A stretch of 64,000 nucleotides of DNA. Source: Clostridiales bacterium (GTDB lineage: Bacteria; Bacillota; Clostridia; Oscillospirales; Oscillospiraceae). How positions within the stretch are numbered: the first letter of the stretch is position 1; each line of letters starts with the position of its first letter. The position numbers and the translations under genes are program-made. The notes beneath the pieces were generated by a model. It ran no database searches and had not been told where the DNA came from. It worked only from the letters and a program-made list of their open reading frames with translations. Shown in pieces: positions 22,491 through 46,638 of the stretch. Where the stretch lies: the NCBI GenBank assembly GCA_012520295.1, contig JAAYOP010000137.1, forward strand, positions 631 through 64,630. Reading direction: 5' to 3'.

Positions 22491-22516
22491 ATTCTTCTCT
22501 TTCTCTCCTCTCCTGC

Positions 22517-25210: not shown

Positions 25211-25222
25211 TATACAAATCTT

Positions 25223-26404: not shown

Positions 26405-26767
26405 AGCTAACCTCCGAAATTATTATTATCTTAAAAAACTCCGTAACGCTTGTCTGATGACAGACATCACAGTAACAGACACCAGGCCCGGGGAAGGTGC
26501 ACCCGGCATTATGTAAACTTTAAAACGCGTTCAGTTTTCAATAACAAAAGTATATACCCATCTTTAATAAAAATCAACACATTGGGCAATTCTTTTGATT
26601 TTTTTATAAGTACAAATCTTTCCGGTGTATGGTGTATAATATTATCAAATCCGGACAACAGGAGTAGCTTGAATGAAGCTCGTTATCGTGATATACTCTG
26701 AAAACCGGATGTGTTCAAGCCCATAAGGCTTTTCACAAAAAACAACTCGTTCGGAGGCGGATATATA

Positions 26768-27346
26768 ATGAACACAGCCGTTATTCTGGCAGGCGGAAAG
26801 AGCCGCCGTATGGGAAGGGACAAACTCAAGCTTCCCTTTCGCGGTAAAACACTGCTTGAGGCTGCCGTAGAGCGATTTTCCAGGAACTTTGATAATGTTT
26901 ATGTCAGTGTAGCAGACACCAACAAATATCCTTATGTAAATGCCCGAAAAATCGAGGATATTTACAAGGGCTGCGGTCCTTTGGCTGGCCTTCATGCGAC
27001 CCTGAAGCAAACCGATGACGAGGGTGTTTTTCTCGTGGCTGCAGATTTGCCCTTTTCAGACCCTATGGCTGCCAAAAAAATCATCCAGTTGGCAGGCGAA
27101 CATGACGCCGCCATGCTACTCGATGAACAGGGGCGCTATGAGCCCTTATTTGCCTATTACAAAAAAAGCATTCTTCCGGCAATCGAGACGCTTTTAGAAA
27201 ACGGAGAATATAGAATGATAAGAGCGCTGGAAACCTTCTCTTTAAGAAAGCTTACAAAGGAGGATCTGGGCAGCTTCTGGAATGACAATCTGCTGCTCAA
27301 TATAAACCTGGTTGATGACTATAAAAAGCTGATGGAAAAACAATAG
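26768..27346 (+). CDS. mobA: molybdenum cofactor guanylyltransferase MobA
   Basis: The ORF has the N-terminal motif MNTAVILAGGKSRRMGRDK. The start at 26768 is preceded by GGAGGCGG. Confidence 0.8.
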   Translation: MNTAVILAGGKSRRMGRDKLKLPFRGKTLLEAAVERFSRNFDNVYVSVADTNKYPYVNARKIEDIYKGCGPLAGLHATLKQTDDEGVFLVAADLPFSDPMAAKKIIQLAGEHDAAMLLDEQGRYEPLFAYYKKSILPAIETLLENGEYRMIRALETFSLRKLTKEDLGSFWNDNLLLNINLVDDYKKLMEKQ

Positions 27347-27507
27347 CCAACAGGTTATATCCTTTATTCCTCCGGAGAGGCTAATGCCGAAAACGTAATG
27401 GTATTACAAAACTCCTTGAACTTTGGTTTTCATAGTGATAGTATAATTGTATTATTAAGCCTCCGGCAGGAAGCTGCTTTAAATTTTAAAGAAAAGGAAA
27501 TGATGAT

Positions 27508-27870
27508 ATGAGCTACAAAATCACAAGAAAAAATGAAGCCTATAAATATGAGGCAAAGGGTCATTTTGACGTCCGCACAACCAGACTTCACGATCCACAG
27601 GATGTCAACAACGGCGTCATCACTATGGGACTGAGTCATTTTCTCCCGGGCGGCGGCTGTGAATACGGCTCAAACCTTCATGAAACCATTTACTACATAA
27701 TAGAGGGCCAGATGTATCTTGAGTGTGAACTGGACACTCCCGACGAGGTTAAGACCACACTCTATGCCGGGGATTCCTTCCACTGCGGCCCCGGAACGAA
27801 AAAATCCGTTGTGAACACCGGCACCACCTCATGCCAGATGCTGGTTGTACTGGTAAAATCCCAGCAATAA
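27508..27870 (+). CDS. small cupin-domain protein
   Basis: A 120-aa ORF has cupin-like beta-barrel motifs (GGGCEYGSNLHETIYYIIEGQMYLE ... GDSFHCGPGTKKSVVNTG). Its function is unknown. Confidence 0.6.
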   Translation: MSYKITRKNEAYKYEAKGHFDVRTTRLHDPQDVNNGVITMGLSHFLPGGGCEYGSNLHETIYYIIEGQMYLECELDTPDEVKTTLYAGDSFHCGPGTKKSVVNTGTTSCQMLVVLVKSQQ

Positions 27871-27928
27871 ACAACTGACATGTTCATATTTCTAATTTGT
27901 AAATATGATTTATGAATATTCTTTATAA

Positions 27929-27953
27929 CAGGCAGACCAGGCAGGTCTGCCTG
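27929..27953. terminator. 10-bp perfect hairpin between the convergent cupin and LysR genes
   Basis: The hairpin is CAGGCAGACC-AGGCA-GGTCTGCCTG. The flanking U-tracts are weak. Confidence 0.5.
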
Positions 27954-27969
27954 AAGCATATTTCCTGTC

Positions 27970-28860
27970 TTAAAACAGCTCTTTTACAACCTCCAGAAAG
28001 AGCCGAGCAGCCGGATTTGTTATTTTTCTGTGCCAGGCAATTACATATGTACGCAGGGTATCATCTCCGGGGATGCGTGTGAAGGAAACGTTTTCGGAAT
28101 AGAATACTCGGGAAAGAGCCTCCGGAATTATGGAAATACCAAGCCCTGCGCCCACAGACAAGAGCACTGCCTCCGCCCGGTCATACTGACAAGTTACATT
28201 TGGTTTATATCCGCGGGCCTCGCATACTTTCGCTATTTCATTATAGAGCGCCGGGCCGTCCGTTTCGGAGACGGCTATGAACCGCTCACCCCCCAGTTTT
28301 GAAAAGTCCAGCGGCTTGCCTGCCATGGGATGATTCTTAGGAAAAGCTACACAAAGGTGGTCGGTATTTGATATAATATAGTCAAAGGTCTCTCCGGCAG
28401 GAACCATTTCCAGCACTGCGAAATGGACGTCATATTTCGCTTCATTCATCGCAATTACCTGGCTTCGTCCGGAGGTGAAGTTTATATCCACAGTAATATC
28501 CGGATATTTTGATGAAAAGGCCGACAGACATTTTGACAAAACCGCACTGGAAGTAGTAAGCGCCGCAATCGATACATGGCCCTTCCACCCTTCCTCCATC
28601 TGTCTGATTTGAAAAGCGGCTTTCTCGGCTATTTCTATCATTTCCACTGCATAGGGAAGGAAGTTATTGCCTGCGTCCGTAAGGGTTACGCTTCGTCTGT
28701 TGCGTATAAAGAGCTTACTTCCAAGATATTTTTCAAGCTCGCCTATGCGATGGCTTATAGCAGGCTGTGTTAACCCGTTTCTTCTTGCCGCCTCAGAAAA
28801 GTTGAGAGTTTGCGCCACCGAAACAAAATACTTCAATTGATTTATATCCATAATATTCAC
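27970..28860 (-). CDS. LysR-family transcriptional regulator
   Basis: A 296-aa ORF has the N-terminal LysR HTH (MDINQLKYFVSVAQTLNFSEAARRNGLTQPAISHRIGELE). It is divergent from the first Mo-enzyme operon. Confidence 0.9.
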   Translation of the reverse strand: MNIMDINQLKYFVSVAQTLNFSEAARRNGLTQPAISHRIGELEKYLGSKLFIRNRRSVTLTDAGNNFLPYAVEMIEIAEKAAFQIRQMEEGWKGHVSIAALTTSSAVLSKCLSAFSSKYPDITVDINFTSGRSQVIAMNEAKYDVHFAVLEMVPAGETFDYIISNTDHLCVAFPKNHPMAGKPLDFSKLGGERFIAVSETDGPALYNEIAKVCEARGYKPNVTCQYDRAEAVLLSVGAGLGISIIPEALSRVFYSENVSFTRIPGDDTLRTYVIAWHRKITNPAARLFLEVVKELF

Positions 28861-28962
28861 ATCACCTCCGTGGTAGCTTTTGTCAAACAGACATATTGTT
28901 ATATCATTAGCTATATATGGATAGTATACATACAGGTCTTCTGATACTATTATGCAAAATAA

Positions 28963-28983
28963 TTTCTATTACGTCAATAGAAA
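28963..28983. promoter_or_regulatory. candidate LysR operator (interrupted dyad containing T-N11-A)
   Basis: TTTCTATT-ACGTC-AATAGAAA has perfect 8-bp arms. It is centred about 25 bp upstream of the -35 of the divergent operon promoter. Confidence 0.5.
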
Positions 28984-28997
28984 ATTTTATTAAGGCG

Positions 28998-29026
28998 TTG
29001 ACATGTATATAAAAATAAGTTATCAT
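28998..29026 (+). promoter_or_regulatory. candidate sigma-A promoter of the first transhydroxylase-like operon
   Basis: The sequence reads TTGACA-17 nt-TATCAT. It lies about 90 nt upstream of the ATG at 29119. Confidence 0.55.
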
Positions 29027-29118
29027 GTGATATGAAATAGTTATTATAAGTGAATGTAGAAGATATTGATTTTCCGGTGTCAATTTCATTTTAAAATCGG
29101 AAACGGGAGGTATATATA

Positions 29119-31845
29119 ATGGGTGTAAAGTTCAAACCTGATGTCCAAAACATAGTGAGCTACAGCCTAATGGGGCCAGAGAGTGGCGGCCCTTGTCTTG
29201 TCGAATCTACAGACGGCAAAATAACAAGAATAAGACCTTACGCATATGACATGGAGTACATCAAAGAAAACTGCAATCCATGGAAGATGGAAGCCAGAGG
29301 CAAGGTGTTTGAAGCCCCCAACCGGGCCACAATTACTCCCTTTGGTCTTGGCTACAAGTACAGGGTCTATTCGCCAAACCGGGTCAAATATCCCCTCAAG
29401 CGGGTGGACTGGGATCCAAAGGGTGAACGCAACCCACAAAACAGAGGTAAATCCGGCTATGTGCGTATCTCCTGGGATGAAGCGGCACAGATAGCCGCCG
29501 ATGAGCTGAAAAGGATTAAAGAAACCTATGGTCCGGAAGCCGTGCTCTGCCAGTCGGACATGCACGGCGAGGGCAAGAATATCGCCCCAAGCCACGGCTG
29601 TCCGAACCGGCTTTTGGCTTTGATGGGCGGCTATACTACCCAAATGCGGAATATGGATAGCTGGGAAGGCTGGTTTTGGGGAGCAAAGCATGTTTGGGGC
29701 TGCGAGCCTGTAGGTGAGATGATGCCCATGACGAACTTATACCCCGATATAGCTAAACATGCCGATTTGCTGCTTTTCTGGGGCTGCGACCCTGAAACGA
29801 CTCCCCTGGGTGTTGTCAGCCATATGCCCAGTCGACTGTGCTATTGGTTAACCGAAATAGGTTTAAAAAGCATTTATATCTGCCCGGATCTCAATTACGG
29901 TGCTGCCGTACATGCCGACAAATGGATACCTATCCTTCCCAATACCGACGTTGCCCTGCAGCTTGCAATCGCGTATATCTGGATTACCGAGGACACCTAT
30001 GATAAAGAGTATATAGATACCCACGCATATGGATTTGATAAGTTTGAGGATTATGTACTGGGCCGTGAGGATGGTATACCCAAGACACCTGAATGGGCTT
30101 CTGAGAAATGCGGTGTCCCCGAGTGGACAATCAAGGCTCTCGCCCGGGACTGGGCAAAAAAGACCGCCAGCATTTTGCACGGAAACGGTGGCCCCTACAT
30201 TCGCGGCCCCTACTCCACCGAACCCGCCCGGCTCGAGGTGATGCTGCTGGGAATGCGTGGCCTCGGAAAACCCGGCGTACACCAGGCAAAAATGATAGAA
30301 TGGAATATGTGGAACAAGGATTATCCCGTTCCCTATCAGGGGCAGTTTGTACCTCAGATGCCTCATATTTGCGATGCTTTGCGTACTGTGGACGGGGACG
30401 TGGGCCCGGAAATAAACTTAAGAAGGTTTTTGCTGACTCCTGAACAGGAGAAGCGCGCGCCTGAGCTCAAGGAGCTGTTCAAGCAGTTGCCGGCGCCCCT
30501 TCAATTCATTCCCCGCACCCTTATACACAAAGCCATATTGGACGGCCATGCGGAATGGTATGGACTGCAGTGCTTCAGCTCCAGCCAGATACCCGACGAG
30601 AATAATTACCGCAAGCCCACAACGGAATACCAGTTTGAAAAGATGGTATATCCCAGGCCCGGGCTATCGAGAATTCACATGATGTGGACCGATGCCCCGT
30701 GCAATGTTACATGCTGGAACAACGGGAATCTGCAAATCAAGGCAATGAGAAGTCCGGAGATTGAGTGCATAATTGCCCAGCACCCATGGCTTGAAAACGA
30801 CTGCTATTTTGCAGACCTTATATTCCCCGTTGCCACAAAGCACGAAATGATAGACATAGGAAACGATTTGAGCAGCGGCGGATATACCTCCGTCTATCTC
30901 ACAGGTAAGTGCTGCGAACCTATCGGCGAGTCTCTTTCCGACTTTGACGTGTGCGCAAAGGTTGCCGAAAAGTTGGGCAAGGAGTACTACGATGCCTATA
31001 CAGGAAACCTTTCTGATGAGGAAAAGGTGAGATTTTTCTACAAAGCAACCGGCTGTGAGGAGTATATGACCTGGGAAGAGTTCCAGGAGAGGAAAATATT
31101 TATCGTACCCTGCAAGCCAGACGCCCAGGAGCTTCCCGCCGGTCTGTATAATTTCTATAAAGACCCTGAAAATAACCCGCTTTCAACCCCTACCGGGCTG
31201 CTGGAATACTCGTCAACAGCGTTGGAAAAGCACTTTCCTGACGATCCTGAGCGGCCTCCGGTACCAAAGTGGATTGAAAAAAGCGAATCCCACGACGAGA
31301 GACTGTCAAGCGAACGTACAAATAAATATCCGTTGCTGTGTATGTCCAATCACGGAAGATGGCGCATGCATGCCCAGTGTGACGACATAGTCCCAAACCG
31401 CGAGGTTGAGACCATGAAAATACGCGCAAAGGACGGCTACCAGTATGAACCTCTGTGGCTGCATACCAGCGAAGCCGAAAAGCGTGGTATTAAGCACGGT
31501 GACATCGTTAAAGTTTTTAATGAACGTGGAACTGTGCTCTGCGGGGCCTATGTGACCGAGCGGCTTATACCAAACACCTGTTATGTGGACCACGGATCTC
31601 GGCTCGACCCCATCGTTCCCGGGGAATTGGACCGGGGTGGCTGCATAAATTCAATCACTCCCACCTCAATGACATCAAAAAAAGCTACCGGTATGGCCGT
31701 CAGCGGCTTTCTTGTGGAGGTTGCCAAGGTTACCGACGAGGAGATGGAGAGATGGAAGAGAGATTATCCTGAAGCCTTTGCCCGCAAGATTGACGAAGCC
31801 GCAGGCGTTTGTCTTGAAGGCTGGCTGATAAGCGATGACTGCTGA
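29119..31845 (+). CDS. molybdopterin (bis-MGD) oxidoreductase large subunit, divergent pyrogallol hydroxytransferase (AthL)-like paralog 1
   Basis: A 908-aa ORF belongs to the DMSO-reductase superfamily. It has no twin-arginine signal and no N-terminal Cys cluster. It shares AthL-type blocks with paralog 2 (ITRIRPY, NPQNRGKSGYVRISWDEA, DSWEGWFWG, TYDKEYI, GIPKTPEWA, MRGLGKPG, DRGGCIN). A strong GGGAGG RBS precedes it. Confidence 0.6.
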   Translation: MGVKFKPDVQNIVSYSLMGPESGGPCLVESTDGKITRIRPYAYDMEYIKENCNPWKMEARGKVFEAPNRATITPFGLGYKYRVYSPNRVKYPLKRVDWDPKGERNPQNRGKSGYVRISWDEAAQIAADELKRIKETYGPEAVLCQSDMHGEGKNIAPSHGCPNRLLALMGGYTTQMRNMDSWEGWFWGAKHVWGCEPVGEMMPMTNLYPDIAKHADLLLFWGCDPETTPLGVVSHMPSRLCYWLTEIGLKSIYICPDLNYGAAVHADKWIPILPNTDVALQLAIAYIWITEDTYDKEYIDTHAYGFDKFEDYVLGREDGIPKTPEWASEKCGVPEWTIKALARDWAKKTASILHGNGGPYIRGPYSTEPARLEVMLLGMRGLGKPGVHQAKMIEWNMWNKDYPVPYQGQFVPQMPHICDALRTVDGDVGPEINLRRFLLTPEQEKRAPELKELFKQLPAPLQFIPRTLIHKAILDGHAEWYGLQCFSSSQIPDENNYRKPTTEYQFEKMVYPRPGLSRIHMMWTDAPCNVTCWNNGNLQIKAMRSPEIECIIAQHPWLENDCYFADLIFPVATKHEMIDIGNDLSSGGYTSVYLTGKCCEPIGESLSDFDVCAKVAEKLGKEYYDAYTGNLSDEEKVRFFYKATGCEEYMTWEEFQERKIFIVPCKPDAQELPAGLYNFYKDPENNPLSTPTGLLEYSSTALEKHFPDDPERPPVPKWIEKSESHDERLSSERTNKYPLLCMSNHGRWRMHAQCDDIVPNREVETMKIRAKDGYQYEPLWLHTSEAEKRGIKHGDIVKVFNERGTVLCGAYVTERLIPNTCYVDHGSRLDPIVPGELDRGGCINSITPTSMTSKKATGMAVSGFLVEVAKVTDEEMERWKRDYPEAFARKIDEAAGVCLEGWLISDDC

Positions 31846-31871
31846 ATACTAAAACGAGAGAGGAGCAGCTT

Positions 31872-32687
31872 ATGTCAAAAGCACTTGTGATTGATGTAGC
31901 TCGCTGCAGCGGCTGCTATAACTGTCAGCTGGCCTGCAAGGACGAGCATGTCGGAAACGATTGGACTCCATATGCAAAACCGCAGCCTCAAATCGGACAG
32001 TTCTGGATCAAGGTCCATGAGAATGTCTGCGGAACAATTCCAAAGGTAAGAATACATTATATACCCAAGCTCTGTAATCACTGCAGAAAAGCTCCCTGCC
32101 TTGAAGCCTGTGAGCACAATGCGATATATCGCAGGGACGATGGATTTATTATCATTAACCCTGAGAAATGCACAGGCTGCAAAGCCTGTCAGGAGGCCTG
32201 TGAATATGACGCGATCTTCTACAATGAAGAGCTGAAAATTGCACAAAAATGTACAGGCTGTGCCCATCTGCTGGATCATGGCTATGAACTCCCGCGCTGC
32301 GTGGAGGCATGTCCTACAGACGCGATGAAATACGGGGAGGAAGAGGATTTAAAAGACTGGATTGAGGGTGCAACGGTAATGATACCCGAAACAGGCTGCC
32401 ATCCGAGAGTGTATTACAGAAACATACCCGGCAAATTCATAGCCGGTACCGTATACGACCCCATTGAGAAAGAGGTCATTATCGGCGCAAAATGCATCCT
32501 CAACTCTGGAGGCAAGGTTTGGCAGGTTAATACAGACGAATACGGAGATTTTTGGTTCGAGGACCTTCCCGTCGGTCTGTTTGACCTGGTAATCTCCGCC
32601 CCGGGATTTGAATATAAGGGCTTTTACAATCTTAAAACATCAAAGGATCTGAATTTGGGCGATATACCATTGGAAAGAGCAAAATAA
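31872..32687 (+). CDS. Fe-S small subunit (BthL-like) of paralog 1, with C-terminal Ig/carboxypeptidase-regulatory-like domain
   Basis: A 271-aa ORF has four Cys groups of 4Fe-4S type (CSGCYNCQLAC, CNHCRKAPC, CTGCKACQEAC, CTGCAHL...CVEAC). A beta-rich tail follows (GTVYDPIEKEVIIGAKCIL...GDFWFEDLPVG). Confidence 0.65.
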   Translation: MSKALVIDVARCSGCYNCQLACKDEHVGNDWTPYAKPQPQIGQFWIKVHENVCGTIPKVRIHYIPKLCNHCRKAPCLEACEHNAIYRRDDGFIIINPEKCTGCKACQEACEYDAIFYNEELKIAQKCTGCAHLLDHGYELPRCVEACPTDAMKYGEEEDLKDWIEGATVMIPETGCHPRVYYRNIPGKFIAGTVYDPIEKEVIIGAKCILNSGGKVWQVNTDEYGDFWFEDLPVGLFDLVISAPGFEYKGFYNLKTSKDLNLGDIPLERAK

Positions 32688-32693
32688 ACCCAC

Positions 32694-32721
32694 GGGGAAA
32701 CCATTTGCAAATGGTTTCCCC
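32694..32721 (+). terminator. strong hairpin after the first operon
   Basis: GGGGAAACCATTT-GC-AAATGGTTTCCCC is a perfect 13-bp inverted repeat 7 nt after the stop. The downstream U-tract is weak. Confidence 0.55.
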
Positions 32722-32896
32722 GATGTATTTGACACGGCGTTGCAATTGGCTTCTATTTCTTGGAAATATGGGCTGAAGTTAGTGGTAAATATGCAGAAAT
32801 TATGTATATATTGTTTTTGACTATGAACATGTTTTCTGATATACTGAATTGCAGACACAAAACAGCAATATCATCGGTAAAATAACCTTCGTACCC

Positions 32897-32927
32897 TTGA
32901 CATTGGAACAGTTCCATGGTTTATAAT
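32897..32927 (+). promoter_or_regulatory. MerR-type promoter (19-bp spacer with central dyad) of the second transhydroxylase operon
   Basis: The sequence reads TTGACA-19 nt-TATAAT. The spacer contains the dyad TTGGAAC-A-GTTCCAT. A 36-bp stretch (32894-32929) is 31/36 identical to 39710-39745. Confidence 0.6.
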
Positions 32928-32950
32928 AACAAAGTTATATCAGGTTACAT

Positions 32951-32976
32951 AAAACAGCCGCTCGTCGGCTGTTTCT
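32951..32976 (+). promoter_or_regulatory. terminator-like hairpin inside the 5' leader of the second transhydroxylase operon
   Basis: AAAACAGCCG-CTCGT-CGGCTGTTTCT lies between the MerR-type promoter and the RBS at 33014. Confidence 0.4.
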
Positions 32977-33028
32977 GATGACATTGCTGTATCTGTATAA
33001 TAAATTTAAAATATAGGAGGCTTTGTAT

Positions 33029-35596: not shown

Positions 35597-35597
35597 C

Positions 35598-36434: not shown

Positions 36435-36443
36435 AATCTTTTT

Positions 36444-36472
36444 GTCTCTGCGGGATAATATCCCGCAGAGAC
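36444..36472 (+). terminator. perfect 13-bp hairpin after bthL-like gene (no U-tract)
   Basis: GTCTCTGCGGGAT-AAT-ATCCCGCAGAGAC lies 10 nt after the stop. It is either an intercistronic structure or a weak terminator. Confidence 0.4.
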
Positions 36473-36634
36473 AATCTGACATTTGGATAATCAAAGTATC
36501 ACTGGGCACGACACAGAACCGGAGCCCGGATATCTGCGTGCCGCATGCTTTAACCTGCGGCAGTTGTGCGCAAAAGTATTTTATTGGAATTTGTAACATA
36601 CAGAAAAATGTTGCGCAGAATGGAGTAAATAAGA

Positions 36635-37834: not shown

Positions 37835-37860
37835 AAAATAATACATAATTACAAATTTTA

Positions 37861-37869
37861 TGATATAAT
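37861..37869 (+). promoter_or_regulatory. extended -10 element (TGaTATAAT) upstream of the SDR gene
   Basis: TGATATAAT lies about 72 nt upstream of the ATG at 37941. No good -35 element is present. Confidence 0.35.
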
Positions 37870-37940
37870 ATAACATGTCTTTGTTTTTGGTGCTAAAATA
37901 GAGTTCAAGGACAACGCTTTAATGGAAGGACGGAGAAGAA

Positions 37941-38738: not shown

Positions 38739-38751
38739 TTAAACAAAAGGA

Positions 38752-38791
38752 AAAGGGTGGCTCACAAAAAAGAGACACCCTTTCTTTTTTT
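38752..38791. terminator. bidirectional terminator between the SDR and MerR genes
   Basis: AAAGGGTG...CACCCTTT is followed by TCTTTTTTT. An A-run lies on the other side. Confidence 0.6.
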
Positions 38792-38802
38792 AACACACAT
38801 AT

Positions 38803-39615
38803 TTATATACTCTCCTCAATGGGAAGCCATACTTCAAAATATCCCGTTACCTTATTGTCTTCTACGACGCTGCACGCCAGATTGCCAAAAGCGCAGTCCG
38901 AGATGACGTAATTATTCTCTTTCGCGTATTCCATCATATAATCCAGATGTCGTGCGGTAAACCTGTCCTTACCTATGCTTTTAAAGGCCGAATGAATGCA
39001 AAGCCGAGAGGGCATGTGTTTTACGGGAGGGCTTATATCGACATCGAATTCCTTTACATACCTCATACTCAGCGAAAATCCCCAGGAATAGTCGTCCCCT
39101 TCACCGAGAAGATCTTCTTCGGATATTTCGAAGTACCGCTTAGTAAACGGCATATATTTCAGCCATTTCCTTGACAGAAGCTGAAGCTCAGAATCATTGT
39201 CATATTTCTTGTTGTATCTGTTTAAGTATCTGACAAATTCCGCACTGCGCCTTATGTCGCACTTCCCGATATATTTTTTAATATTTACAAGACTTTCATA
39301 GTATTTTCTTATGCGCTGCAGTAAAAGCTCTTGGTATCGGATATTCTTCGTAATCTCTTCGCTTTTTTCCCTCAAATCGTCCATCAGCATTTCATATGTG
39401 CTCGCTGAGACAATCTGTGCCACATGGTCAATTCCAAATCCGAAATTTTTAAACCAGAGGCAATCAATCAGAAAATTAATATCCCAAGTATCATAATATC
39501 TATAGTTATTAGAGGGATCCTTTTCCGGTGATACTACGCCTTTTTCTTCATAATAACGGATTAGATCGGGCGATATTCCAAGGATTCTAGCCACATCACC
39601 AATCTTATACTTCAT
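38803..39615 (-). CDS. MerR-family regulator with C-terminal GyrI-like effector-binding domain (BmrR-type architecture)
   Basis: The ORF has the N-terminal MerR HTH (MKYKIGDVARILGISPDLIRYYEEKGVVSPEKDPSNNYRYY), then a coiled-coil linker and a C-terminal domain of about 150 aa ending in GYFEVWLPIE. GGAGGG lies 8 nt upstream of the start. Confidence 0.8.
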   Translation of the reverse strand: MKYKIGDVARILGISPDLIRYYEEKGVVSPEKDPSNNYRYYDTWDINFLIDCLWFKNFGFGIDHVAQIVSASTYEMLMDDLREKSEEITKNIRYQELLLQRIRKYYESLVNIKKYIGKCDIRRSAEFVRYLNRYNKKYDNDSELQLLSRKWLKYMPFTKRYFEISEEDLLGEGDDYSWGFSLSMRYVKEFDVDISPPVKHMPSRLCIHSAFKSIGKDRFTARHLDYMMEYAKENNYVISDCAFGNLACSVVEDNKVTGYFEVWLPIEESI

Positions 39616-39664
39616 AGTTAGAACCCTCCTACAGAATAAACTACATTATTAACTTATTTAGTAT

Positions 39665-39692
39665 ATTATAACTGATTTTTAAGGATTGTCCA
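39665..39692 (-). promoter_or_regulatory. candidate promoter of the MerR-family gene
   Basis: The minus strand reads TGGACA-16 nt-TATAAT. It is back to back with the cyclase operon promoter. Confidence 0.4.
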
Positions 39693-39712
39693 TTGAAAGT
39701 TGTGAGATTCCC

Positions 39713-39743
39713 TTGACTTTGGAACGGTGCCAAGGTTTAGAAT
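39713..39743 (+). promoter_or_regulatory. MerR-type promoter (19-bp spacer with dyad) of the phloroglucinol-pathway operon
   Basis: The sequence reads TTGACT-19 nt-TAGAAT. The spacer contains TTGGAAC-G-GTGCCAA. It is divergent from the MerR-family gene and is a near copy of 32894-32929. Confidence 0.6.
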
Positions 39744-39800
39744 AATATTGCCATTACTTTTAATTTAATTTTATTATTTTATATAAGGAGGATTTATAAA

Positions 39801-40688
39801 ATGGCCTATATGCCACTCGACAAAAGCAAATTATATCTTGACAGGACAAAGATGACAAAGATATATGATCTTAGTCAGCCTTGGGGCGTTGACACTCCCC
39901 TGTGGCCGTTTCCGGGAGCCCGGCAGGATCTGGTATTTCCCCGCGGACAGTATCTGGGACGTTTCCACAAGAGAACTATGACCTATACTGGCACCCTTCA
40001 CGCCGGTACTCATATGGATGCCCCCAATCATGTCCTTCATGAGGAAGAAGTCGATCGCGAGCGAAATGGCTATACCTTTGCCGAGATTCCCCTGGAATAT
40101 ACCATAGGAACAGGTGTAATTCTCGACATGCGCCATTTGAGAGATGAATTCGAAGCAAAATGGAAAACAGGCTTCGAACCTGATCTCTGGTACGAGCTCA
40201 AGCCTGAGGATTTTGAAAAGGCATGCCAGAAGGACGGCCTGGAAATACGCGAGTATGACTGGGTTGTGGTAAATACCGGTTTCCATCATTACTGGAGAAA
40301 AAACAACGACAAGTACTATAATTATTATCCGGGCATGGGCCCCGAGGTTGCCAAGTGGCTTATTCACGAAAAGCGTATAAAGGGTATTGCCGGAACATGG
40401 GGCGCAACAGATGCTCCCCTGTGGCACGCTCCCCTTTCTGAGCAGATGCCATGGCTCGATAAAGCCTACAGAAAGGCAACAGGAAGAGATCCCGATGTGG
40501 ATTTCCCCGACTACGAACCCTGTCACCGTCTTTTCATGCAACACGGAGTTTGCACTGTTGAAAATGCCGGTGGCAATATTGACGAGGTTACCGGAAAGCG
40601 CATGATAATCAGCGCTACCCCGTTCCGCTGCGAGATGGCCGACGGTGGATTCGTCAGACTGGTGGCTTGGGAAGAAGGTTCTTTCTAA
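39801..40688 (+). CDS. cyclase-family metal hydrolase, candidate dihydrophloroglucinol cyclohydrolase
   Basis: A 295-aa ORF has the cyclase/kynurenine-formamidase metal motif HxGTHxDxPxH (HAGTHMDAPNH). A strong AAGGAGG RBS precedes it. Confidence 0.6.
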   Translation: MAYMPLDKSKLYLDRTKMTKIYDLSQPWGVDTPLWPFPGARQDLVFPRGQYLGRFHKRTMTYTGTLHAGTHMDAPNHVLHEEEVDRERNGYTFAEIPLEYTIGTGVILDMRHLRDEFEAKWKTGFEPDLWYELKPEDFEKACQKDGLEIREYDWVVVNTGFHHYWRKNNDKYYNYYPGMGPEVAKWLIHEKRIKGIAGTWGATDAPLWHAPLSEQMPWLDKAYRKATGRDPDVDFPDYEPCHRLFMQHGVCTVENAGGNIDEVTGKRMIISATPFRCEMADGGFVRLVAWEEGSF

Positions 40689-40720
40689 ATAATCGATTTT
40701 ATTCGCAGTAATACAAACAA

Positions 40721-40758
40721 GCACATAATGACCAGATAAATATTTGGTCATTATGTGC
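40721..40758 (+). promoter_or_regulatory. 14-bp perfect intercistronic hairpin
   Basis: GCACATAATGACCA-10 nt-TGGTCATTATGTGC lies between the cyclase and dehydrogenase genes. It has no U-tract. Confidence 0.4.
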
Positions 40759-40789
40759 CTTGAAATCAGTAAAGGGACTGGTCATAATA

Positions 40790-41752
40790 ATGTTAACGCT
40801 TAATGATATCAAAAAAATCGCGGTTCTGGGTGCCGGAACCATGGGGCCCGGTATCGCCCAGATTTTTGCCATGGGCGGTTATGATGTTACAATGTGGACC
40901 CGCAGCGAGGCAACTCGTAATAAAGCCAGGGAAACCCTCCACAAAAGTCTGGAGACCTTTGCCGAAGAGGATCTTTTAGCTAAAAACCGGATAGAGGATG
41001 TGTTCGGCAGGGTTAGCTTCGCCCCCACGGTAGAGGAGGCTGTGGATGGCGCGGACTTTATAATGGAAACCATTGTTGAGAATAAGGACGCAAAAACAGA
41101 GCTGTTCAAGCAGTTGGATGCATGCATAGGAAATGATTGTATATTAGCGTCCAATACCTCCGGACTCAACATTTTTGAGCTCATTCCCAAACACAGACTG
41201 CCCCAGATGGTCATTGCCCACTGGTATTCTCCGCCGCAGCTTATTCCTTTGGTTGAGGTAGTTAAAAGCGAGCAGGCCCCCGAAGAATATGCAGCGATAA
41301 CGGTGGAGCTTTTAGAGAAGTGCGGTAAAACCCCTGTTCTGATGAAAAAATTTATCAGAGGATATATAGCCAACCGCTTGCAGATGTGTCTCAATCAGGA
41401 GGTTTTCTATCTTCTTGACAATGGCTATTGCACTCCTGAAGATATAGATAAGGCCGTCAAGTCCAGCTTTATACCCAGAGCAGTAGTGCTCGGTCTATGC
41501 AAACGCGCCGATTTCGGCGGCCTTGATATGACAGCCAATAATTTCAAAAATAAGAGCTATCAGCTTCCACCGCCTGTGGATATGCCCAAGACCCTGGCAG
41601 AACATATAGAAAAAGGAGAGCTTGGTCTAAAAACCGGCAAGGGTTTCTATGATTATACGGGAGTCGACAAGCAGGCCCTGCTGGCAAAACGCGACAAGCA
41701 ACTGTTTGAAGTATTTAAATTAGCTAATAAATTCATGGAAGATCCCGTCTAA
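40790..41752 (+). CDS. 3-hydroxyacyl-CoA dehydrogenase-family NAD enzyme, candidate (S)-3-hydroxy-5-oxohexanoate dehydrogenase
   Basis: The ORF has a Rossmann N-terminus (KKIAVLGAGTMGPGIAQIFAMGGYDV) and an Hbd-like C-terminal domain. The start was set at MLTLNDIKK. An upstream TTG at 40760 is possible. Confidence 0.6.
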   Translation: MLTLNDIKKIAVLGAGTMGPGIAQIFAMGGYDVTMWTRSEATRNKARETLHKSLETFAEEDLLAKNRIEDVFGRVSFAPTVEEAVDGADFIMETIVENKDAKTELFKQLDACIGNDCILASNTSGLNIFELIPKHRLPQMVIAHWYSPPQLIPLVEVVKSEQAPEEYAAITVELLEKCGKTPVLMKKFIRGYIANRLQMCLNQEVFYLLDNGYCTPEDIDKAVKSSFIPRAVVLGLCKRADFGGLDMTANNFKNKSYQLPPPVDMPKTLAEHIEKGELGLKTGKGFYDYTGVDKQALLAKRDKQLFEVFKLANKFMEDPV

Positions 41753-41788
41753 ATAAAATATTACGATATATGAAAGGAGTAGAGCATC

Positions 41789-42703
41789 GTGGCCAAGTCC
41801 AATAAGATAATTATACAGTGCGCCCTTTGCGGTGCAGGAACAAAAAAAGAACAGGCTCCTACCGTTCCCTATACACCTGAGGAGATTGCCGAGCAAATTG
41901 TAGAAGTTGCGAAGGCAGGTGCTTCCATCGCCCATATCCATGTACGTGAGGATAAGATGGTAGACGGTAAGATGCAGATTGGCTATAAGTCCATGAGCCT
42001 TGAGAAATTTACCGAAGCCGTCGAACTCACTCGGAAAGCCTGTAAGGAAGCCGGGGTTGACATAATCATCAACCTTACCACCTCAGGAGGCGAGTATGAA
42101 GATTACAAGCGCCTACAGCATCTGGGCGCCCTGAGGCCTGAAATGTGTTCTTTTGACCCCAACACCCTTAATTGGGCCAACAGCTATATCTTTGAAAATA
42201 GCCCCCGCTTTCTCAACCTGCTGAGCCAGGAAGTTGTAAAATATGATATTAAGCCTGAATTTGAAATATTTGATACGGGGCATATAGACAGTGCTATGCA
42301 TTATGTGAATAAGTGGAATATTCCCAAGCCTCCCCATCTCCAGTTTATAATGGGTGTAGGCGGCTCTATGCCCGGCACCGCCGAAAATCTCGCTTTTATG
42401 GTAAGCAAGCTTCCGGAGGGAGCCACCTGGTCGGTTTCCGGCATCGGAAGAACCCACTTACCCATGATGCTGGCAGGCCTTGCCTTGGGATGTGACGGTC
42501 TGCGTGTCGGCCTTGAGGACAATATATACTATTCCAAGGGCGTTGTTGCCACCAATCTTCAGCTGGTAGAGCGCGCTGTAGAGCTGGCAAAACTGGCCGG
42601 CCGTGAAATTGCCACTGCCGACGAGGCCAGAGAGATACTTGGCATTACGCGCAACTGCCTGCGCGATGAGAAGACATATGAGCCCACATTTAAGGCCGAA
42701 TAA
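41789..42703 (+). CDS. BKACE (beta-keto acid cleavage enzyme, DUF849) family protein, candidate triacetate acetoacetate-lyase
   Basis: A 304-aa ORF starts at GTG after AGGAG. It has the BKACE N-terminal signature (IIIQCALCGAGTKKEQAPTVPYTPEEIAEQIVEVAKAGASIAHIHVRED). Confidence 0.65.
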   Translation: MAKSNKIIIQCALCGAGTKKEQAPTVPYTPEEIAEQIVEVAKAGASIAHIHVREDKMVDGKMQIGYKSMSLEKFTEAVELTRKACKEAGVDIIINLTTSGGEYEDYKRLQHLGALRPEMCSFDPNTLNWANSYIFENSPRFLNLLSQEVVKYDIKPEFEIFDTGHIDSAMHYVNKWNIPKPPHLQFIMGVGGSMPGTAENLAFMVSKLPEGATWSVSGIGRTHLPMMLAGLALGCDGLRVGLEDNIYYSKGVVATNLQLVERAVELAKLAGREIATADEAREILGITRNCLRDEKTYEPTFKAE

Positions 42704-42812
42704 TATAACTCATGTATTATAAAAAATAATAAAAAGTAAAATACTAAAGAACCACAGGTTTATCGGAGTTTCCCGCTGACCGGTGGTTATAAGAAAGGAA
42801 TATAGTTATAAT

Positions 42813-43487
42813 ATGGCAAAAAGCAAGGTTGTTTCAATTGACGAAGCCATGGAAAAGATCCACAGTGGACAAACACTCATGGTTCCTGGTTTTGTCAACT
42901 GCGGCGTACCACAAACGCTTATCGCCGCCATACTCGAACGTGGATACACTGATTTAAACATCATATCCAACAATACCAGCGTAAAGGGTAAAGGTATCGG
43001 AAAGCTTGTCCACGCAAACCGTATAAAGCATATTACCTGCTCTCATATAGGCAATAACACTGAAACAGTGGAAAAGGTTGTGGCCGGCGAAATCAATGTT
43101 ACATTCGTTCCCCAGGGTACCCTGTGTGAGAGAATTAGAGCGGGCGGTGCCGGTATTGGCGGAATCCTTACTCCCACCGGTCTCGGAACCCCGGTTGAAG
43201 AAGGTAAGCAGGTAATTGAGATAAACGGAAAGAAATATCTTTTGGAACTCCCTCTTCGGGCAGATGTAGCTATTATACACGCCTATAAGGCGGACAAGAT
43301 AGGTAACTGCATATATCACAGAACTGCCCGAAACTTCAATCAGATTATGGCCACAGCGGCTGATTTCGTTATCGTCGAAGCTGAAGAAATTGTTGAAGTC
43401 GGCGAGTTGGACCCCGATATTATAGTCACACCAGGATGTCTTGTTGATATGGTTGTGCAGGCCAGATTGGAGGATAGAGATGAATAG
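42813..43487 (+). CDS. atoD: 3-oxoacid/acetoacetate CoA-transferase subunit A
   Basis: The ORF shows family-I CoA-transferase A subunit features (MAKSKVVSIDEAMEKIHSGQTLMVPGF, VPQGTLCERIRAGGAGIGG). Confidence 0.85.
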   Translation: MAKSKVVSIDEAMEKIHSGQTLMVPGFVNCGVPQTLIAAILERGYTDLNIISNNTSVKGKGIGKLVHANRIKHITCSHIGNNTETVEKVVAGEINVTFVPQGTLCERIRAGGAGIGGILTPTGLGTPVEEGKQVIEINGKKYLLELPLRADVAIIHAYKADKIGNCIYHRTARNFNQIMATAADFVIVEAEEIVEVGELDPDIIVTPGCLVDMVVQARLEDRDE

Positions 43488-44133
43488 CAGAGAATTTATA
43501 GCAAAGAGAACTGCCAAGTTTTTTAATGATGGCGACCTTGTAAATCTGGGGATAGGCATGCCCACCTTGTGCCTGAATTATCTGCCTGAGGATGTTGATA
43601 TCTGGATTCAGTCGGAAAACGGAGTAATCGGCCTTGATGGAACCCCCAAAGAAGGAGAATATGCAGATCCCGATATAGTTGACGCTTCCGGATCAATCTC
43701 AACCATGCGGGTCGGCGGATGCTGCTTTGACAGCTTTACGTCCTTCGGCTTAATTCGCGGAGGACATGTCAATGTTACCGTTCTGGGCGCCTATGAAGTC
43801 GACCAGGAGGGTAATCTGGCAAACTGGAGTGTTCCGGGAAAAACTGTTGCCGGAATGGGCGGCGCAATGGATCTTGTATCTGGAGCACAGCTTGTCATTG
43901 TAATGACAATGCACTGTGATAAATACGGGAATCCGAAAATATTAAAAAAGTGTACACTGCCCTTAACGGCGGTAAACGAAGTAGACTATATCGTTACTGA
44001 GCTCTGCGTCCTACACCATACGGAGGAAGGTCTTGTACTGGAAGAGCTTGCCCCGGGTGTTACCGTTGAGGAAGTAGTTTCTAAAACCGATGCTGAGCTT
44101 ATAATACCGGAGAAAATCGGAAGTATGGAATAA
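43480..44133 (+). CDS. atoA: 3-oxoacid/acetoacetate CoA-transferase subunit B
   Basis: The ORF begins MNSREFIAKRTAKFFNDGDLVNLGIGMPT and contains the SENG active-site Glu motif (IQSENGVIG). It overlaps the subunit A stop by 8 nt. Confidence 0.85.
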   Translation: MNSREFIAKRTAKFFNDGDLVNLGIGMPTLCLNYLPEDVDIWIQSENGVIGLDGTPKEGEYADPDIVDASGSISTMRVGGCCFDSFTSFGLIRGGHVNVTVLGAYEVDQEGNLANWSVPGKTVAGMGGAMDLVSGAQLVIVMTMHCDKYGNPKILKKCTLPLTAVNEVDYIVTELCVLHHTEEGLVLEELAPGVTVEEVVSKTDAELIIPEKIGSME

Positions 44134-44365
44134 TCCTCCACTTCCATAATATCCCGCCCTATTAAGCGGGTATCAATGCAATAACAGCAAAAGCATAAGC
44201 TTTTGCATCCAATCCTATTCCTTTAATAAAAATAACTATTTGCCAAGCACCGAATCGGGTTCTTTTACGTGGTTAACTGAATATGCCTGAGGGCAAAATA
44301 GCCGGAACTCGACTCGACTTGTTCAATCACATCTTATTGTAAATATATATCAGGAGAGATATGAA

Positions 44366-45901
44366 TTGTCAGTTCAGTTGATTGTCATCTTGGTTTATTT
44401 TGCCCTTACGGTTTTAATAGGGGTTTTGTCATCCAAGAAATCTAAAACTTCAGATTCCTTTCACGGGGCTGCTATGGGCATATTCGCCATAGTGGCCGCT
44501 TCTGCCGGAGAATGGCTTGGAGGCACAGCCACTACGGGGGTATCCGAATACGGTTTTGACTACGGTCTGTCAGGGGCCTGGTATACGATTTCCAACGGCA
44601 TTGGAATAATGTTTTTGGCCTTACTGTTTGCCAAGCTCTATCGAAGCCTGAATACCGTAACAGTGCCTGGAATAATCGAGAAATTTTTCGGAGTTAAGGC
44701 CAGAACGGTTTCAAGTATATTGCTTACAATCGTTATGCTGGCTGTCGGACTCTCTCAGATGATTGCCGCAGGCAAGCTGGGCCAGTCCCTTCTGGGCTTT
44801 CCGTTTGCACCAACAGTTATAGTTTTTGCAATAATTTTTATTGTTTATACCCTGGCAGGCGGTATGAATGCAGTGTCTTCAACAAACAAAATGCACCTGT
44901 TTGTTATGTACGGCGGTGTAATTCTGGCCCTTATCTTTGCTGTTCTGAAGATTGGCGGTTTTGATGCAATATTTAAGGGTCTGGACGGAGCAAATATGTC
45001 CAACGAAACTAAAGAGGCTTTACTGTCCGCCGGTAAATCTATGGAAAGCATTAAGGAAATGGAGAGTGTGAGCGCGGACAGATATTTCAATATGTTCACA
45101 ATCGGAATGCCCAAGGTCTCATCCTGGATAATTGCGTCCTTGCTGGGAGCCTGCACCGCTCAAGCCGGTATCCAGCCTGTGCTGGCCGCCAAAGACGTGC
45201 CAACCGCGAAAAAAGCCTGTATTATTACAGCCCTTGTCGCCGCTCCCTTTGGTCTTTTTACAGCTTTTCTTGGAATGTCGGCAAAAGCAATGTTTAACAC
45301 TGGAACAATGCTCTATGACAAGTCGGACGCTCTCCTTAACGGAAAGTCCGCTCTTCCGACACTGATGATGAATATACATAGCGATCCCACAGTAAACGGT
45401 ATCATCGGCGGCCTGGTTCTGGCTTCCATACTTGCCGCCATATTATCCACCGTATCTCCAATTATTCTTTCAGCAGGCACAATGATAACAAAAGACCTCT
45501 ATCAGCGTGTATTAAAAACCGATGCCACCGATGCACAGGTTCTCAGAATGTCACGCATTACTACGGCTTTGTCCGGTGTGGTGTGCATGCTGGGTGCCTT
45601 ACTGCTTGTTCAGGCAAGTGCGGTGCTTGATATTGTATACGCGGCTTATTCCCTGCGCGGTGCGCTTTTTATAGTAGTATTGCTTGGTATCTACTGGAAG
45701 CGCGCCTCCGAAAAGGGCGCCTGCTGGAGTATGGTGCTGACCGGCGTTGTGGCAATCCTGTGGAAGGTCACACAAATGGTAACTGGCCATTATCCAATTT
45801 CGAATTTTATCACCGAAACATATGCAGCGGTAATAATAGCATTTATCGCAACTGTAGCCTTTAGTTTTATATTCCCAAAGAAAAAAATAGAGCAGGGTTA
45901 A
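44366..45901 (+). CDS. sodium:solute symporter (SSS) family transporter
   Basis: A 511-aa polytopic ORF starts at TTG 7 nt after AGGAGA. It is the last gene of the pathway string. Confidence 0.8.
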   Translation: MSVQLIVILVYFALTVLIGVLSSKKSKTSDSFHGAAMGIFAIVAASAGEWLGGTATTGVSEYGFDYGLSGAWYTISNGIGIMFLALLFAKLYRSLNTVTVPGIIEKFFGVKARTVSSILLTIVMLAVGLSQMIAAGKLGQSLLGFPFAPTVIVFAIIFIVYTLAGGMNAVSSTNKMHLFVMYGGVILALIFAVLKIGGFDAIFKGLDGANMSNETKEALLSAGKSMESIKEMESVSADRYFNMFTIGMPKVSSWIIASLLGACTAQAGIQPVLAAKDVPTAKKACIITALVAAPFGLFTAFLGMSAKAMFNTGTMLYDKSDALLNGKSALPTLMMNIHSDPTVNGIIGGLVLASILAAILSTVSPIILSAGTMITKDLYQRVLKTDATDAQVLRMSRITTALSGVVCMLGALLLVQASAVLDIVYAAYSLRGALFIVVLLGIYWKRASEKGACWSMVLTGVVAILWKVTQMVTGHYPISNFITETYAAVIIAFIATVAFSFIFPKKKIEQG

Positions 45902-45911
45902 ATGTTAAGTC

Positions 45912-45955
45912 AGCCCCGATTTGAGCCTGAGCTCAAATCGGGGCTTTCTGTCTTT
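45912..45955 (+). terminator. intrinsic terminator after the symporter
   Basis: AGCCCCGATTTGAGC-CTGA-GCTCAAATCGGGGCT is a 15-bp perfect stem. T-rich sequence follows it. Confidence 0.8.
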
Positions 45956-46044
45956 ATTTACAGGAACACAGACTTATAATCCGGCCATCTTATATAACTT
46001 GCAGAGGACATATGAATAAATAATAAATTATGGTAATTATGGCA

Positions 46045-46073
46045 TTGAAAAATTCCGCTCGTGTATGTATAAT
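46045..46073 (+). promoter_or_regulatory. candidate sigma-A promoter of mobB
   Basis: The sequence reads TTGAAA-17 nt-TATAAT. It lies about 55 nt upstream of the mobB ATG. Confidence 0.5.
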
Positions 46074-46128
46074 AGCATTTACTTAAATCACCATGTGCCG
46101 ATGAAATTCCGGCCAGTTGAGGATATGA

Positions 46129-46638
46129 ATGAATGCAACTATACCTATATATTCATTTGTCGCTTTTTCCGGAACCGGGAAAACAACGCTTCTGGAAAAA
46201 CTCATTCCCGAACTAAAAGCAAGGGGCTTACGCGTAGCCGTTATAAAACACGATGCCCATGACTTCAATATAGACCATGAGGGCAAGGACAGTTGGCGGA
46301 TGACTCAGGCGGGAGCCGATGTAACGGTAATCGTATCTGGTAAAAAAGCCGCCATAATGGAAAACCGTCCAACATCCGTGGAGGATCTGATAGAAAAGAT
46401 TACAGATGTGGATATACTCTTGACGGAGGGATATAAGCACGGCGGGTGGAAGAAAATCTGCATATACAGACAGGCCTCCGGAAAACCGCTGGCCATTGAG
46501 CCGGAAAAATGCTTCGCCATCATGTCCGATGTACCCCTTGATGTAAAAACCCTTTGCCTCGACATTGACGATATTTCGGGCTTGGCCAAACTTATCATCG
46601 AAGACGCACAAAAAAGCAGGAGGAAGGAAGATGATTAA
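46129..46638 (+). CDS. mobB: molybdopterin-guanine dinucleotide biosynthesis adaptor MobB
   Basis: A 169-aa ORF has a P-loop (FSGTGKTTLLEKL) and the motif VAVIKHDAHDF. Confidence 0.8.
   Translation: MNATIPIYSFVAFSGTGKTTLLEKLIPELKARGLRVAVIKHDAHDFNIDHEGKDSWRMTQAGADVTVIVSGKKAAIMENRPTSVEDLIEKITDVDILLTEGYKHGGWKKICIYRQASGKPLAIEPEKCFAIMSDVPLDVKTLCLDIDDISGLAKLIIEDAQKSRRKEDD

Follow-up and report, generated by a model that had tools for sequence, protein, structure and literature searches.

Under anaerobic conditions, the degradation of tannins, flavonoids, and syringyl lignin units funnels through phloroglucinol. Pyrogallol is converted to phloroglucinol by a molybdenum (Mo) transhydroxylase that uses 1,2,3,5-tetrahydroxybenzene as co-substrate; the enzyme of Pelobacter acidigallici (AthL/BthL, or PgtL) is represented by Protein Data Bank (PDB) entry 4v4c. 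Phloroglucinol is degraded in Clostridium scatologenes through a gene cluster encoding phloroglucinol reductase (PGR), dihydrophloroglucinol cyclohydrolase (DPGC), (S)-3-hydroxy-5-oxohexanoate dehydrogenase (TfD), and triacetate acetoacetate-lyase (TAL; Zhou et al., mBio 2023, PMC10470551). Here, these systems are compared with a cluster of about 20 kb within a stretch of 64,000 nucleotides from a Clostridiales bacterium (assembly GCA_012520295.1, contig JAAYOP010000137.1, positions 631 to 64,630), the whole of which is referred to as the window. A sequence-only reading of the window had described two AthL/BthL-like pairs, a short-chain dehydrogenase/reductase (SDR), a cyclase-family hydrolase, a dehydrogenase, a β-keto acid cleavage enzyme (BKACE), a CoA-transferase, a thiolase, a symporter, and two regulators, all bracketed by mobA and mobB. 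Open reading frame (ORF) listing together with Pfam and NCBIfam scans confirmed this gene content and its coordinates, with every one of these families present.

The locus is neither a copy of the known enzymes nor categorically new. The cluster is real and widely conserved, and by sequence comparison each of its enzymes represents an uncharacterized subfamily that is sister to, but distinct from, the known enzymes for pyrogallol and phloroglucinol. With a probability of roughly 60%, the cluster would encode a divergent pathway, here called type 2, that converts pyrogallol or another benzenetriol to phloroglucinol and on to acetyl-CoA and includes a second Mo enzyme, probably of new specificity. 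Its most likely role is the fermentation of plant-derived trihydroxybenzenes to acetyl-CoA by an uncultured bacterium of biogas reactors. Of the complete pyrogallol to phloroglucinol to acetyl-CoA route that had been read from the sequence, the assignments at family level, the logic of the pathway, and the connection with Mo cofactor maturation hold, while the identification with the known enzymes does not.

Molybdenum enzymes and their accessory genes

The large subunits AthL1 (29119-31845, +) and AthL2 (33023-35596, +) each contain the AthL-specific N-terminal domain PF21423 (AhtL-like_1st), scoring 42.3 and 63 bits, respectively, against a cut-off of 27, along with Molybdopterin and Molydop_binding domains. 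The small subunits BthL1 (31872-32687, +) and BthL2 (35598-36434, +) match Fer4_11 and CarboxypepD_reg, and both possess the ferredoxin-type Fe-S domains and the C-terminal Ig-like domain of the transhydroxylase small subunit. In PDB searches, 4v4c_A is the top match of both large subunits (781 bits for AthL2 and 463 bits for AthL1), with dimethyl sulfoxide (DMSO) and trimethylamine N-oxide (TMAO) reductases reaching at most 251 bits. BthL1 matches 4v4c_B at 172.6 bits, followed by the next structure at 109 bits, and 4v4c_B is likewise the top match of BthL2 at 165 bits. The N-termini of AthL1 and AthL2 (MGVKFKPDVQ... and MYMAERITYS...) contain neither the RR motif of twin-arginine translocation (Tat) signals nor the CxxC motif that supplies the FS0 Cys residues, and the ORF listing of the window includes no membrane anchor gene beside the Mo enzymes. 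Tat-exported reductases, which would have refuted the sequence-only reading, are thereby excluded.

It could nevertheless be argued that the cluster is an assembly of chance neighbors, in which the Mo enzymes are respiratory reductases of S-oxides, N-oxides, or polysulfide and the BKACE, dehydrogenase, CoA-transferase, and thiolase form part of a route resembling lysine fermentation. BisC, DmsA, and TorA are indeed the best NCBIfam matches of the large subunits, as Kce is of the BKACE, but all of these matches are sub-threshold and lie far under the curated cut-offs. The missing Tat signal and membrane anchor and the AthL-specific N-terminal domain also oppose this explanation, the likelihood of which is close to negligible.

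In the transhydroxylase active site, Ser175 is reportedly the Mo ligand, accompanied by the flanking Asp174 and Trp176 and by His144, and Tyr404, Tyr152, Tyr560, Arg153, and Trp354 are said to be residues of the substrate pocket. An alignment of 36 family members, read at positions 144, 152, 153, 174, 175, 176, 354, 404, 557, and 560 of P. acidigallici AthL (PaAthL), separates four clades, each with a fixed active-site signature: HYRDSWWY[CN]Y in the canonical clade, HYKDSWEY[GAS]Y in an intermediate clade, HYKDSWFYSY in the AthL2 clade, and H[PA][SAC]DSWG[MVIL]S[FY] in the AthL1 clade. H144, D174, S175, and W176 are kept in AthL1, AthL2, and all 36 aligned members. AthL2 further keeps Y152, Y404, and Y560 and carries the changes R153K, W354F, and C557S. 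AthL1 retains the Mo-ligand Ser and lacks Y152, R153, W354, and Y404. The AthL1-type clade comprises the window protein, a protein of locus L096 (16064-18661; related loci are referred to by such numbers), and members from 13 other loci, usually accompanied by a second AthL of another clade, and its genes occur beside canonical as well as type 2 lower pathways. AthL1/BthL1, whose active site is remodeled, probably catalyzes some other transfer of a hydroxyl group or a hydroxylation, such as one acting on another benzenetriol isomer or one generating the tetrahydroxybenzene co-substrate.

The genes bracketing the cluster belong to Mo cofactor synthesis. The MobA-like transferase (26711-27346, +; PF12804, 124.8 bits), for which an in-frame start near 26768 is plausible, finds its best NCBIfam matches among MobA models, all below cut-off, and MobB (46129-46638, +) exceeds the cut-off of TIGR00176 with 146.5 bits. 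Both would supply the guanine dinucleotide form of the cofactor. Downstream of mobA lies a small cupin of 120 aa (27508-27870, +; Cupin_2, 32.9 bits), not mentioned in the sequence-only reading, that shares 65% identity with its counterpart (9098-9442) immediately 5′ of the P. acidigallici-type athL in L090. It recurs in L002 (13672-14007), L006-8, L036, L044, L047, L056, L063, L082, and L096 (5527-5874). Cupins of 111-120 aa, which fall into two subgroups and do not keep the classical His ligands, accompany transhydroxylase-like genes of every clade, and the cupin is a conserved partner of transhydroxylase loci. A PDB sequence search with the cupin returned no match, and its single-sequence AlphaFold model was unusable (predicted local distance difference test, pLDDT, of 35).

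The lower pathway and its conservation

The cyclase-family metal hydrolase (39801-40688, +; PF04199; motif HAGTHMDAPNH) shares with DPGC the segments D-x-P-x-W-P-[YF], HxGTHxDAPxH, EPCH, and VENxGG. Its metal (Mn) ligands are kept (H67, H71, D73, and H77, with EPCH and VEN), and it has part of the DPGC-specific insert that is missing from isatin hydrolase. W35-P-F37 of the cyclase corresponds to Trp20 and Tyr22 of DPGC, with Tyr replaced by Phe, where isatin hydrolase has Ile and Leu. The protein is 295 aa long compared to 310-337 aa for DPGC, and the published list of DPGC proteins includes none of the 294-301 aa typical of the window-type cyclase. Isatin hydrolase is its nearest solved structure in a PDB search, at 25 bits; the solved structures searched included none of DPGC, TfD, or TAL. 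When 1.84 billion representative proteins were searched exhaustively, only 597 proved to match the cyclase; about 40th in this ranking is the C. scatologenes-type DPGC cluster. Given that so small a set includes DPGC at this rank, the window cyclase and DPGC are taken to be neighboring branches of one small clade. A 306-aa antisense ORF over the cyclase gene (39831-40751, -) was rejected as an ORF-calling artefact, its equivalents in relatives having no Pfam match.

Immediately downstream, the 3-hydroxyacid/acyl dehydrogenase (40760-41752, +; 3HCDH_N and 3HCDH) has a likely start around 40790, the gene caller giving 320 aa, and carries a TfD-like S-F-x-x-R segment that is absent from Hbd. The BKACE (41789-42703, +; PF05853, 295 bits) has Gly where Kce has Glu14, the residue that binds the 5-amino group of the Kce substrate, and C. 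scatologenes TAL (CsTAL) has Trp16. Gly is found at this position in all type 2 BKACEs and Met in the BKACE of L096, while Glu is found in none. The window BKACE scores under the cut-off of every NCBIfam BKACE equivalog. Replacement of the amino-binding Glu by Gly also opposes the lysine-fermentation part of the chance-neighbor explanation, as does the lack of any lysine aminomutase-type ORF among the recurrent neighbors. The SDR (37941-38738, +; adh_short_C2) has S-R-K after strand β2, the NADPH motif of PGR being TR(S/N), and is proposed to be an NADPH-dependent dearomatizing reductase that would be an analogue, not an orthologue, of PGR.

The remaining enzymes are an acetyl-CoA C-acetyltransferase, or thiolase (36635-37834, +; TIGR01930, 471 bits), and the A and B subunits of a 3-oxoacid CoA-transferase (42783-43487, +; TIGR02429, 235 bits; and 43441-44133, +; TIGR02428, 286 bits), all above cut-off. 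In NCBIfam, no model specific for a pathway enzyme was matched and equivalog matches remained below cut-off, unlike those to the thiolase, CoA-transferase A and B, and MobB models. The sodium:solute symporter (SSS, or SSF; 44366-45901, +; PF00474, 175.9 bits; TIGR00813, 187 bits) is possibly a phenol uptake system; SSF genes also flank the canonical transhydroxylase loci L094 and L097.

From these families we infer the substrates, products, and order of steps as follows. First, a phenol such as pyrogallol would enter the cell, possibly through the symporter, and the cytoplasmic AthL2/BthL2, carrying the bis-molybdopterin guanine dinucleotide (bis-MGD) cofactor, would move a hydroxyl group to form phloroglucinol. 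The ring would then be reduced by the SDR with NAD(P)H and opened by the DPGC-like cyclase-family metal hydrolase to 3-hydroxy-5-oxohexanoate, which the 3HCDH-type dehydrogenase would oxidize to 3,5-dioxohexanoate. With acetyl-CoA, the BKACE would cleave this intermediate to acetoacetate and acetoacetyl-CoA, leaving CoA-transferase A/B and thiolase to produce acetyl-CoA. Phloroglucinol suits each of these downstream enzymes.

Matches to the window-type cyclase were found in 260 genome species. Neighborhoods within 10 kb of the cyclase were counted for the best 80 of these species, in which the cyclase is 80-92% identical and of which 33 loci have full flanks. The carriers among them include Papillibacter, Sporobacter, other Oscillospiraceae, Peptococcaceae, Desulfobacteraceae, Desulfatiglans, Spirochaetia, Synergistaceae, and Sporomusa silvacetica. 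Beside the cyclase, the dehydrogenase gene hcdh is present in 61 of the 80 loci, bkace and sdr in 40 each, merR in 36 (in the same position as in the window), ctfAB in 33, and thl in 23, and the arrangement of SDR, cyclase, 3HCDH, and BKACE is kept in 23. AthL/BthL-like genes adjoin the cyclase in 27 loci (16 of the 33 with full flanks), mobB adjoins its cluster in 14 and mobA in nine, and the cupin lies beside the cyclase in eight. Any AthL gene adjoining a type 2 cyclase belongs to the AthL1, AthL2, or intermediate clade and never to the canonical clade. In the nearest relative, L001, the gene order is that of the window except for an inverted athL1 pair. Several recurrent ORF clusters without Pfam matches in the relatives proved to be artefacts of overlapping or antisense ORF calling.

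Since the same gene set recurs around orthologous cyclases in dozens of genomes, the co-localization is not due to chance, and the linkage of Mo enzyme and cyclase module across phyla again contradicts the chance-neighbor explanation. In addition, the module is followed by Pta and Ack in L002 and by matching ORF clusters in L030 and L063, in line with fermentation to acetate. A literature search found no paper describing the type 2 variant cluster.

Weighing the pathway and its substrate

Several observations weigh against a phloroglucinol route in the window. As to the upper module, AthL2 is 44% and AthL1 34% identical to PaAthL, and both fall outside the large orthologue clade that a PaAthL query recovers at 61-96% identity. 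The best PDB match of the SDR is 1vl8 ("gluconate 5-dehydrogenase") at 162 bits, above the 130 bits of 5g4k, which we take to be the PGR structure, and the SDR of a related locus shows the same preference. Identity of the cyclase to CsDPGC and FpDPGC is 29% and 27%, respectively, and the dehydrogenase is 33% identical to CsTfD, 31% to FpTfD, and 31% to C. butyricum Hbd, the DPGC and TfD sequences having been taken from a machine-read supplement with some optical character recognition errors (PMC10470551). No window protein is thus an orthologue of a characterized enzyme among those compared. The earlier assignments survive in part: the AthL/BthL identity stands for the family (PF21423, top match 4v4c) but not for the orthologue clade; the DPGC-like cyclase stands for its motifs and metal ligands but not for orthology; the 3-hydroxy-5-oxohexanoate dehydrogenase retains a TfD-like segment without specific similarity; and the TAL assignment of the BKACE is upheld as to family and the absent amino-binding Glu, with Gly in place of Trp16. 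The assignment of the SDR as PGR is doubtful. In sum, the SDR and BKACE do not appear to be orthologues of characterized enzymes, and whole-protein similarity to the characterized phloroglucinol enzymes is not specific, though several diagnostic features are common nonetheless.

These identities also bear on the idea that the locus simply brings together the known enzymes for pyrogallol and phloroglucinol, an idea that agrees with the occurrence of the same Pfam families in the expected combination. The true orthologue clades, however, consist of different proteins. L096 contains a canonical transhydroxylase 81% identical to PaAthL together with a C. scatologenes-type lower pathway, whose DPGC and TfD share 85% and 50% identity with their C. 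scatologenes counterparts, and PaAthL-type proteins stand at 61-96%. With 44%, 34%, 29%, and 33% identity for the corresponding window proteins and no protein of 294-301 aa in the published DPGC list, this idea is highly improbable.

A more serious alternative is a paralogous pathway using the same reaction types on a different hydroxylated aromatic, such as another benzenetriol or benzenetetrol or a ring-substituted analogue. That each component forms a distinct subfamily, at 29-44% identity to the characterized enzymes, would agree with such a pathway, as would the systematic differences at positions 153, 354, and 557 in the AthL2 and intermediate clades. Upper and lower modules also co-vary. 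Type 2 transhydroxylase clades always pair with a type 2 lower pathway; a canonical transhydroxylase was found together with a lower pathway only once, and there the pathway was of the C. scatologenes type. Mixed arrangements were not encountered, and in particular no window-type cyclase adjoined an SDR or DPGC of the C. scatologenes type. Hence, the two systems could pass on a different intermediate. Both systems are found together in GCA_942492735.1, which has a canonical transhydroxylase by a phloretin-hydrolase gene (L092) and a type 2 cluster (L021) with its own AthL1-type and AthL2-type genes, and this coexistence implies that the paralogues are probably not fully redundant. Papillibacter has both cyclase types, and Sporomusa species have one or the other. 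In the loci of sulfate reducers, the minimal conserved unit is SDR and cyclase alone, which would likewise suit a different substrate. Co-variation, coexistence, and the distribution of the cyclase types all count against the phloroglucinol route.

On the other side, the downstream set of dehydrogenase, BKACE, CoA-transferase, thiolase, and often Pta/Ack is what is needed to obtain three C2 units from phloroglucinol. By our own derivation, reduced hydroxyhydroquinone would instead yield 2-hydroxy- or 4-hydroxy-5-oxohexanoate, neither of which is a 3-hydroxy or β-keto acid. The catalytic residues of AthL2 are conserved, and canonical pyrogallol/phloroglucinol loci also have AthL1-type genes and the cupin; L096, for example, holds both, its AthL1-type pair being 51% identical to that of the window. 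The sharing of AthL1-type enzymes and cupin by both systems argues that both handle the same compound pool. A different phenol is therefore considered rather unlikely, and the divergent type 2 route from pyrogallol or another benzenetriol through phloroglucinol is preferred. Also in favor of this route, Sporobacter termitidis DSM 10068, described as growing on methoxylated aromatics alone by means of O-demethylation and ring cleavage (PMC4585845), carries a type 2 cluster with an AthL2-type gene (L018); the published DPGC list does not include this organism.

A bolder proposal, which is possible but put forward only tentatively, is that type 2 constitutes a second and evolutionarily distinct system of anaerobic benzenetriol fermentation, present in at least 260 genome species. 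It would include two new transhydroxylase clades, with AthL1-type enzymes (without Tyr404) performing an undescribed Mo-dependent hydroxyl transfer or hydroxylation, and the cupin as a new accessory component. Candidates for the AthL1-type reaction are hydroxyhydroquinone isomerization and synthesis of the tetrahydroxybenzene co-substrate.

Surveys for phloroglucinol degradation in the microbiomes of gut, peat, and digesters depend on the enzymes of C. scatologenes and on one transhydroxylase model. If type 2 is a working phloroglucinol/benzenetriol pathway, such surveys would miss a large share of the degraders, among them Oscillospiraceae, Peptococcaceae, Desulfobacterota, Spirochaetes, and Synergistaceae. 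The type 2 module also offers named candidates for the genes of the extra hydroxyl-transfer steps known from Pelobacter physiology and for the origin of the tetrahydroxybenzene co-substrate, and it brings to attention an unstudied cupin that travels with transhydroxylase genes.

Genomic setting and comparison with known systems

The host is an uncultured anaerobe common in biogas reactors, and proteins identical to those of the window occur on metagenome contigs from biogas fermenters. The arrangement of the cluster suggests three operons, on account of terminator-like hairpins after bthL1 and the symporter and of the divergent regulators. A perfect palindrome of 15+15 nt resembling an intrinsic terminator (32693-32722) lies between the Mo-enzyme pairs, 3′ of bthL1, and a strong terminator-like hairpin with a 15-pair stem and T-rich tail (45912-45945, +) closes the cyclase-to-symporter operon. 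A LysR-family regulator (27970-28860, -; HTH_1 and LysR_substrate), divergent from athL1 and with orthologues 73-74% identical in L034 and L035, would control the athL1 operon, and a MerR-family regulator (38803-39615, -; MerR_1), divergent from the cyclase operon, would control the latter. The lysR-athL1 intergenic region contains a palindrome (28958-28988), and scans of the regulator-promoter regions for inverted repeats gave weak candidates only. An Rfam scan of the window returned no RNA family at gathering score.

The 5′ flank of the cluster consists of flagellar export genes and a block of electron transfer flavoprotein (Etf), acyl-CoA dehydrogenase, CoA-transferase III, and thiolase genes, and the 3′ flank of a thioesterase, a MacB-like ABC transporter, and dnaA-dnaN-recF-gyrB. 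These flanks place the window on the chromosome near the replication origin. The G+C content is 0.45-0.51 in the cluster (26000-46000) and 0.39-0.45 in the flagellar and dnaA flanks; this contrast, along with the 80-92% identity of the cyclase across phyla, fits horizontal transfer of the module.

Apart from the cluster itself, the block directly upstream of mobA (20498-26404, -) comprises genes for EtfB, for an EtfA bearing a double [4Fe-4S] domain at its N-terminus, and for an acyl-CoA dehydrogenase, a CoA-transferase of family III, and a second thiolase; no Hbd or crotonase gene is present. It may serve electron-bifurcating enoyl-CoA reduction, e.g., in butyrate formation or in a system resembling caffeyl-CoA reductase. 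Gene strand and GC skew switch close to 26.5 kb, where the cluster begins on its left side, some 30 kb from dnaA-dnaN-recF-gyrB (56719-63074), so that the cluster and its right flank are oriented with the dnaA side. An FlK-like (fluoroacetyl-CoA-type) hotdog thioesterase (46565-47053) overlaps the end of mobB and is followed by a fused MacB-like ABC ATPase/permease (47172-50147); neither is kept beside the cluster in other genomes. Further on, a 515-aa fusion (50397-51944) joins an FAD-dependent oxidoreductase (DAO) to a C-terminal Rieske [2Fe-2S] domain.

Among the known systems, the P. acidigallici transhydroxylase resembles the window Mo enzymes in its heterodimer gene pair, AthL-specific N-terminal domain, and bis-MGD fold, in the Mo ligand Ser175 with Asp174 and His144, in the absence of a Tat signal consistent with a cytoplasmic location, and in an Fe-S small subunit whose C-terminal domain is Ig-like; AthL2 also has Tyr152, Tyr404, and Tyr560 in common with it. 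The window proteins differ in sequence (44% for AthL2 and 34% for AthL1, outside the 61-96% clade) and in their neighbors. Canonical athL/bthL genes adjoin UbiD-type genes in L090, L094/L095, and L097, LpdD and UbiX genes in L090 and L094/L095, and a conserved flavodoxin_2/FMN_red gene in L090 and L094/L095. TRAP or SSF transporters are found in L094/L095 and L097, the latter also containing mobA, moeA, and mobB. Canonical athL is near a phloretin-hydrolase gene in L092 and stands alone in Parasporobacterium (L093), and the P. acidigallici athL locus (L090) has no lower-pathway genes within 10 kb. None of the decarboxylase and flavodoxin genes of canonical loci accompanies the window-type cluster. 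The absence from the window of a gallate decarboxylase (UbiD/UbiX) or phloretin hydrolase, as reported by the sequence-only reading, was corroborated by tblastn with queries from related loci, which detected no UbiD, LpdD, UbiX, or DAPG-hydrolase homologue.

The C. scatologenes cluster comprises the same four lower-pathway families with thiolase, acetoacetate CoA-transferase, transporter, and regulator, and shares with the window the W-P-aromatic motif and metal ligands of the cyclase, the TfD-like segment, and a BKACE without the amino-binding Glu. It differs in its DPGC (29% identity) and TfD (33%), whereas the window has an SDR of the 1vl8 type and a BKACE with Gly rather than Trp16; the survey based on the C. 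scatologenes cluster did not include the window cyclase family. Moreover, the window cluster is physically joined to genes for Mo transhydroxylase-like enzymes as well as to mobA and mobB. Finally, resorcinol hydroxylase (RhLS) and 3,5-dihydroxybenzoate hydroxylase (DbhLS) belong, by description, to the same RhL/PgtL family of Ser-coordinated Mo-bisMGD enzymes and likewise act on phenol rings. In contrast to the fermentation proposed here, they serve nitrate-reducing bacteria and pass electrons into respiration, though they may offer a model for AthL1 if this enzyme hydroxylates with water instead of transferring a hydroxyl group.

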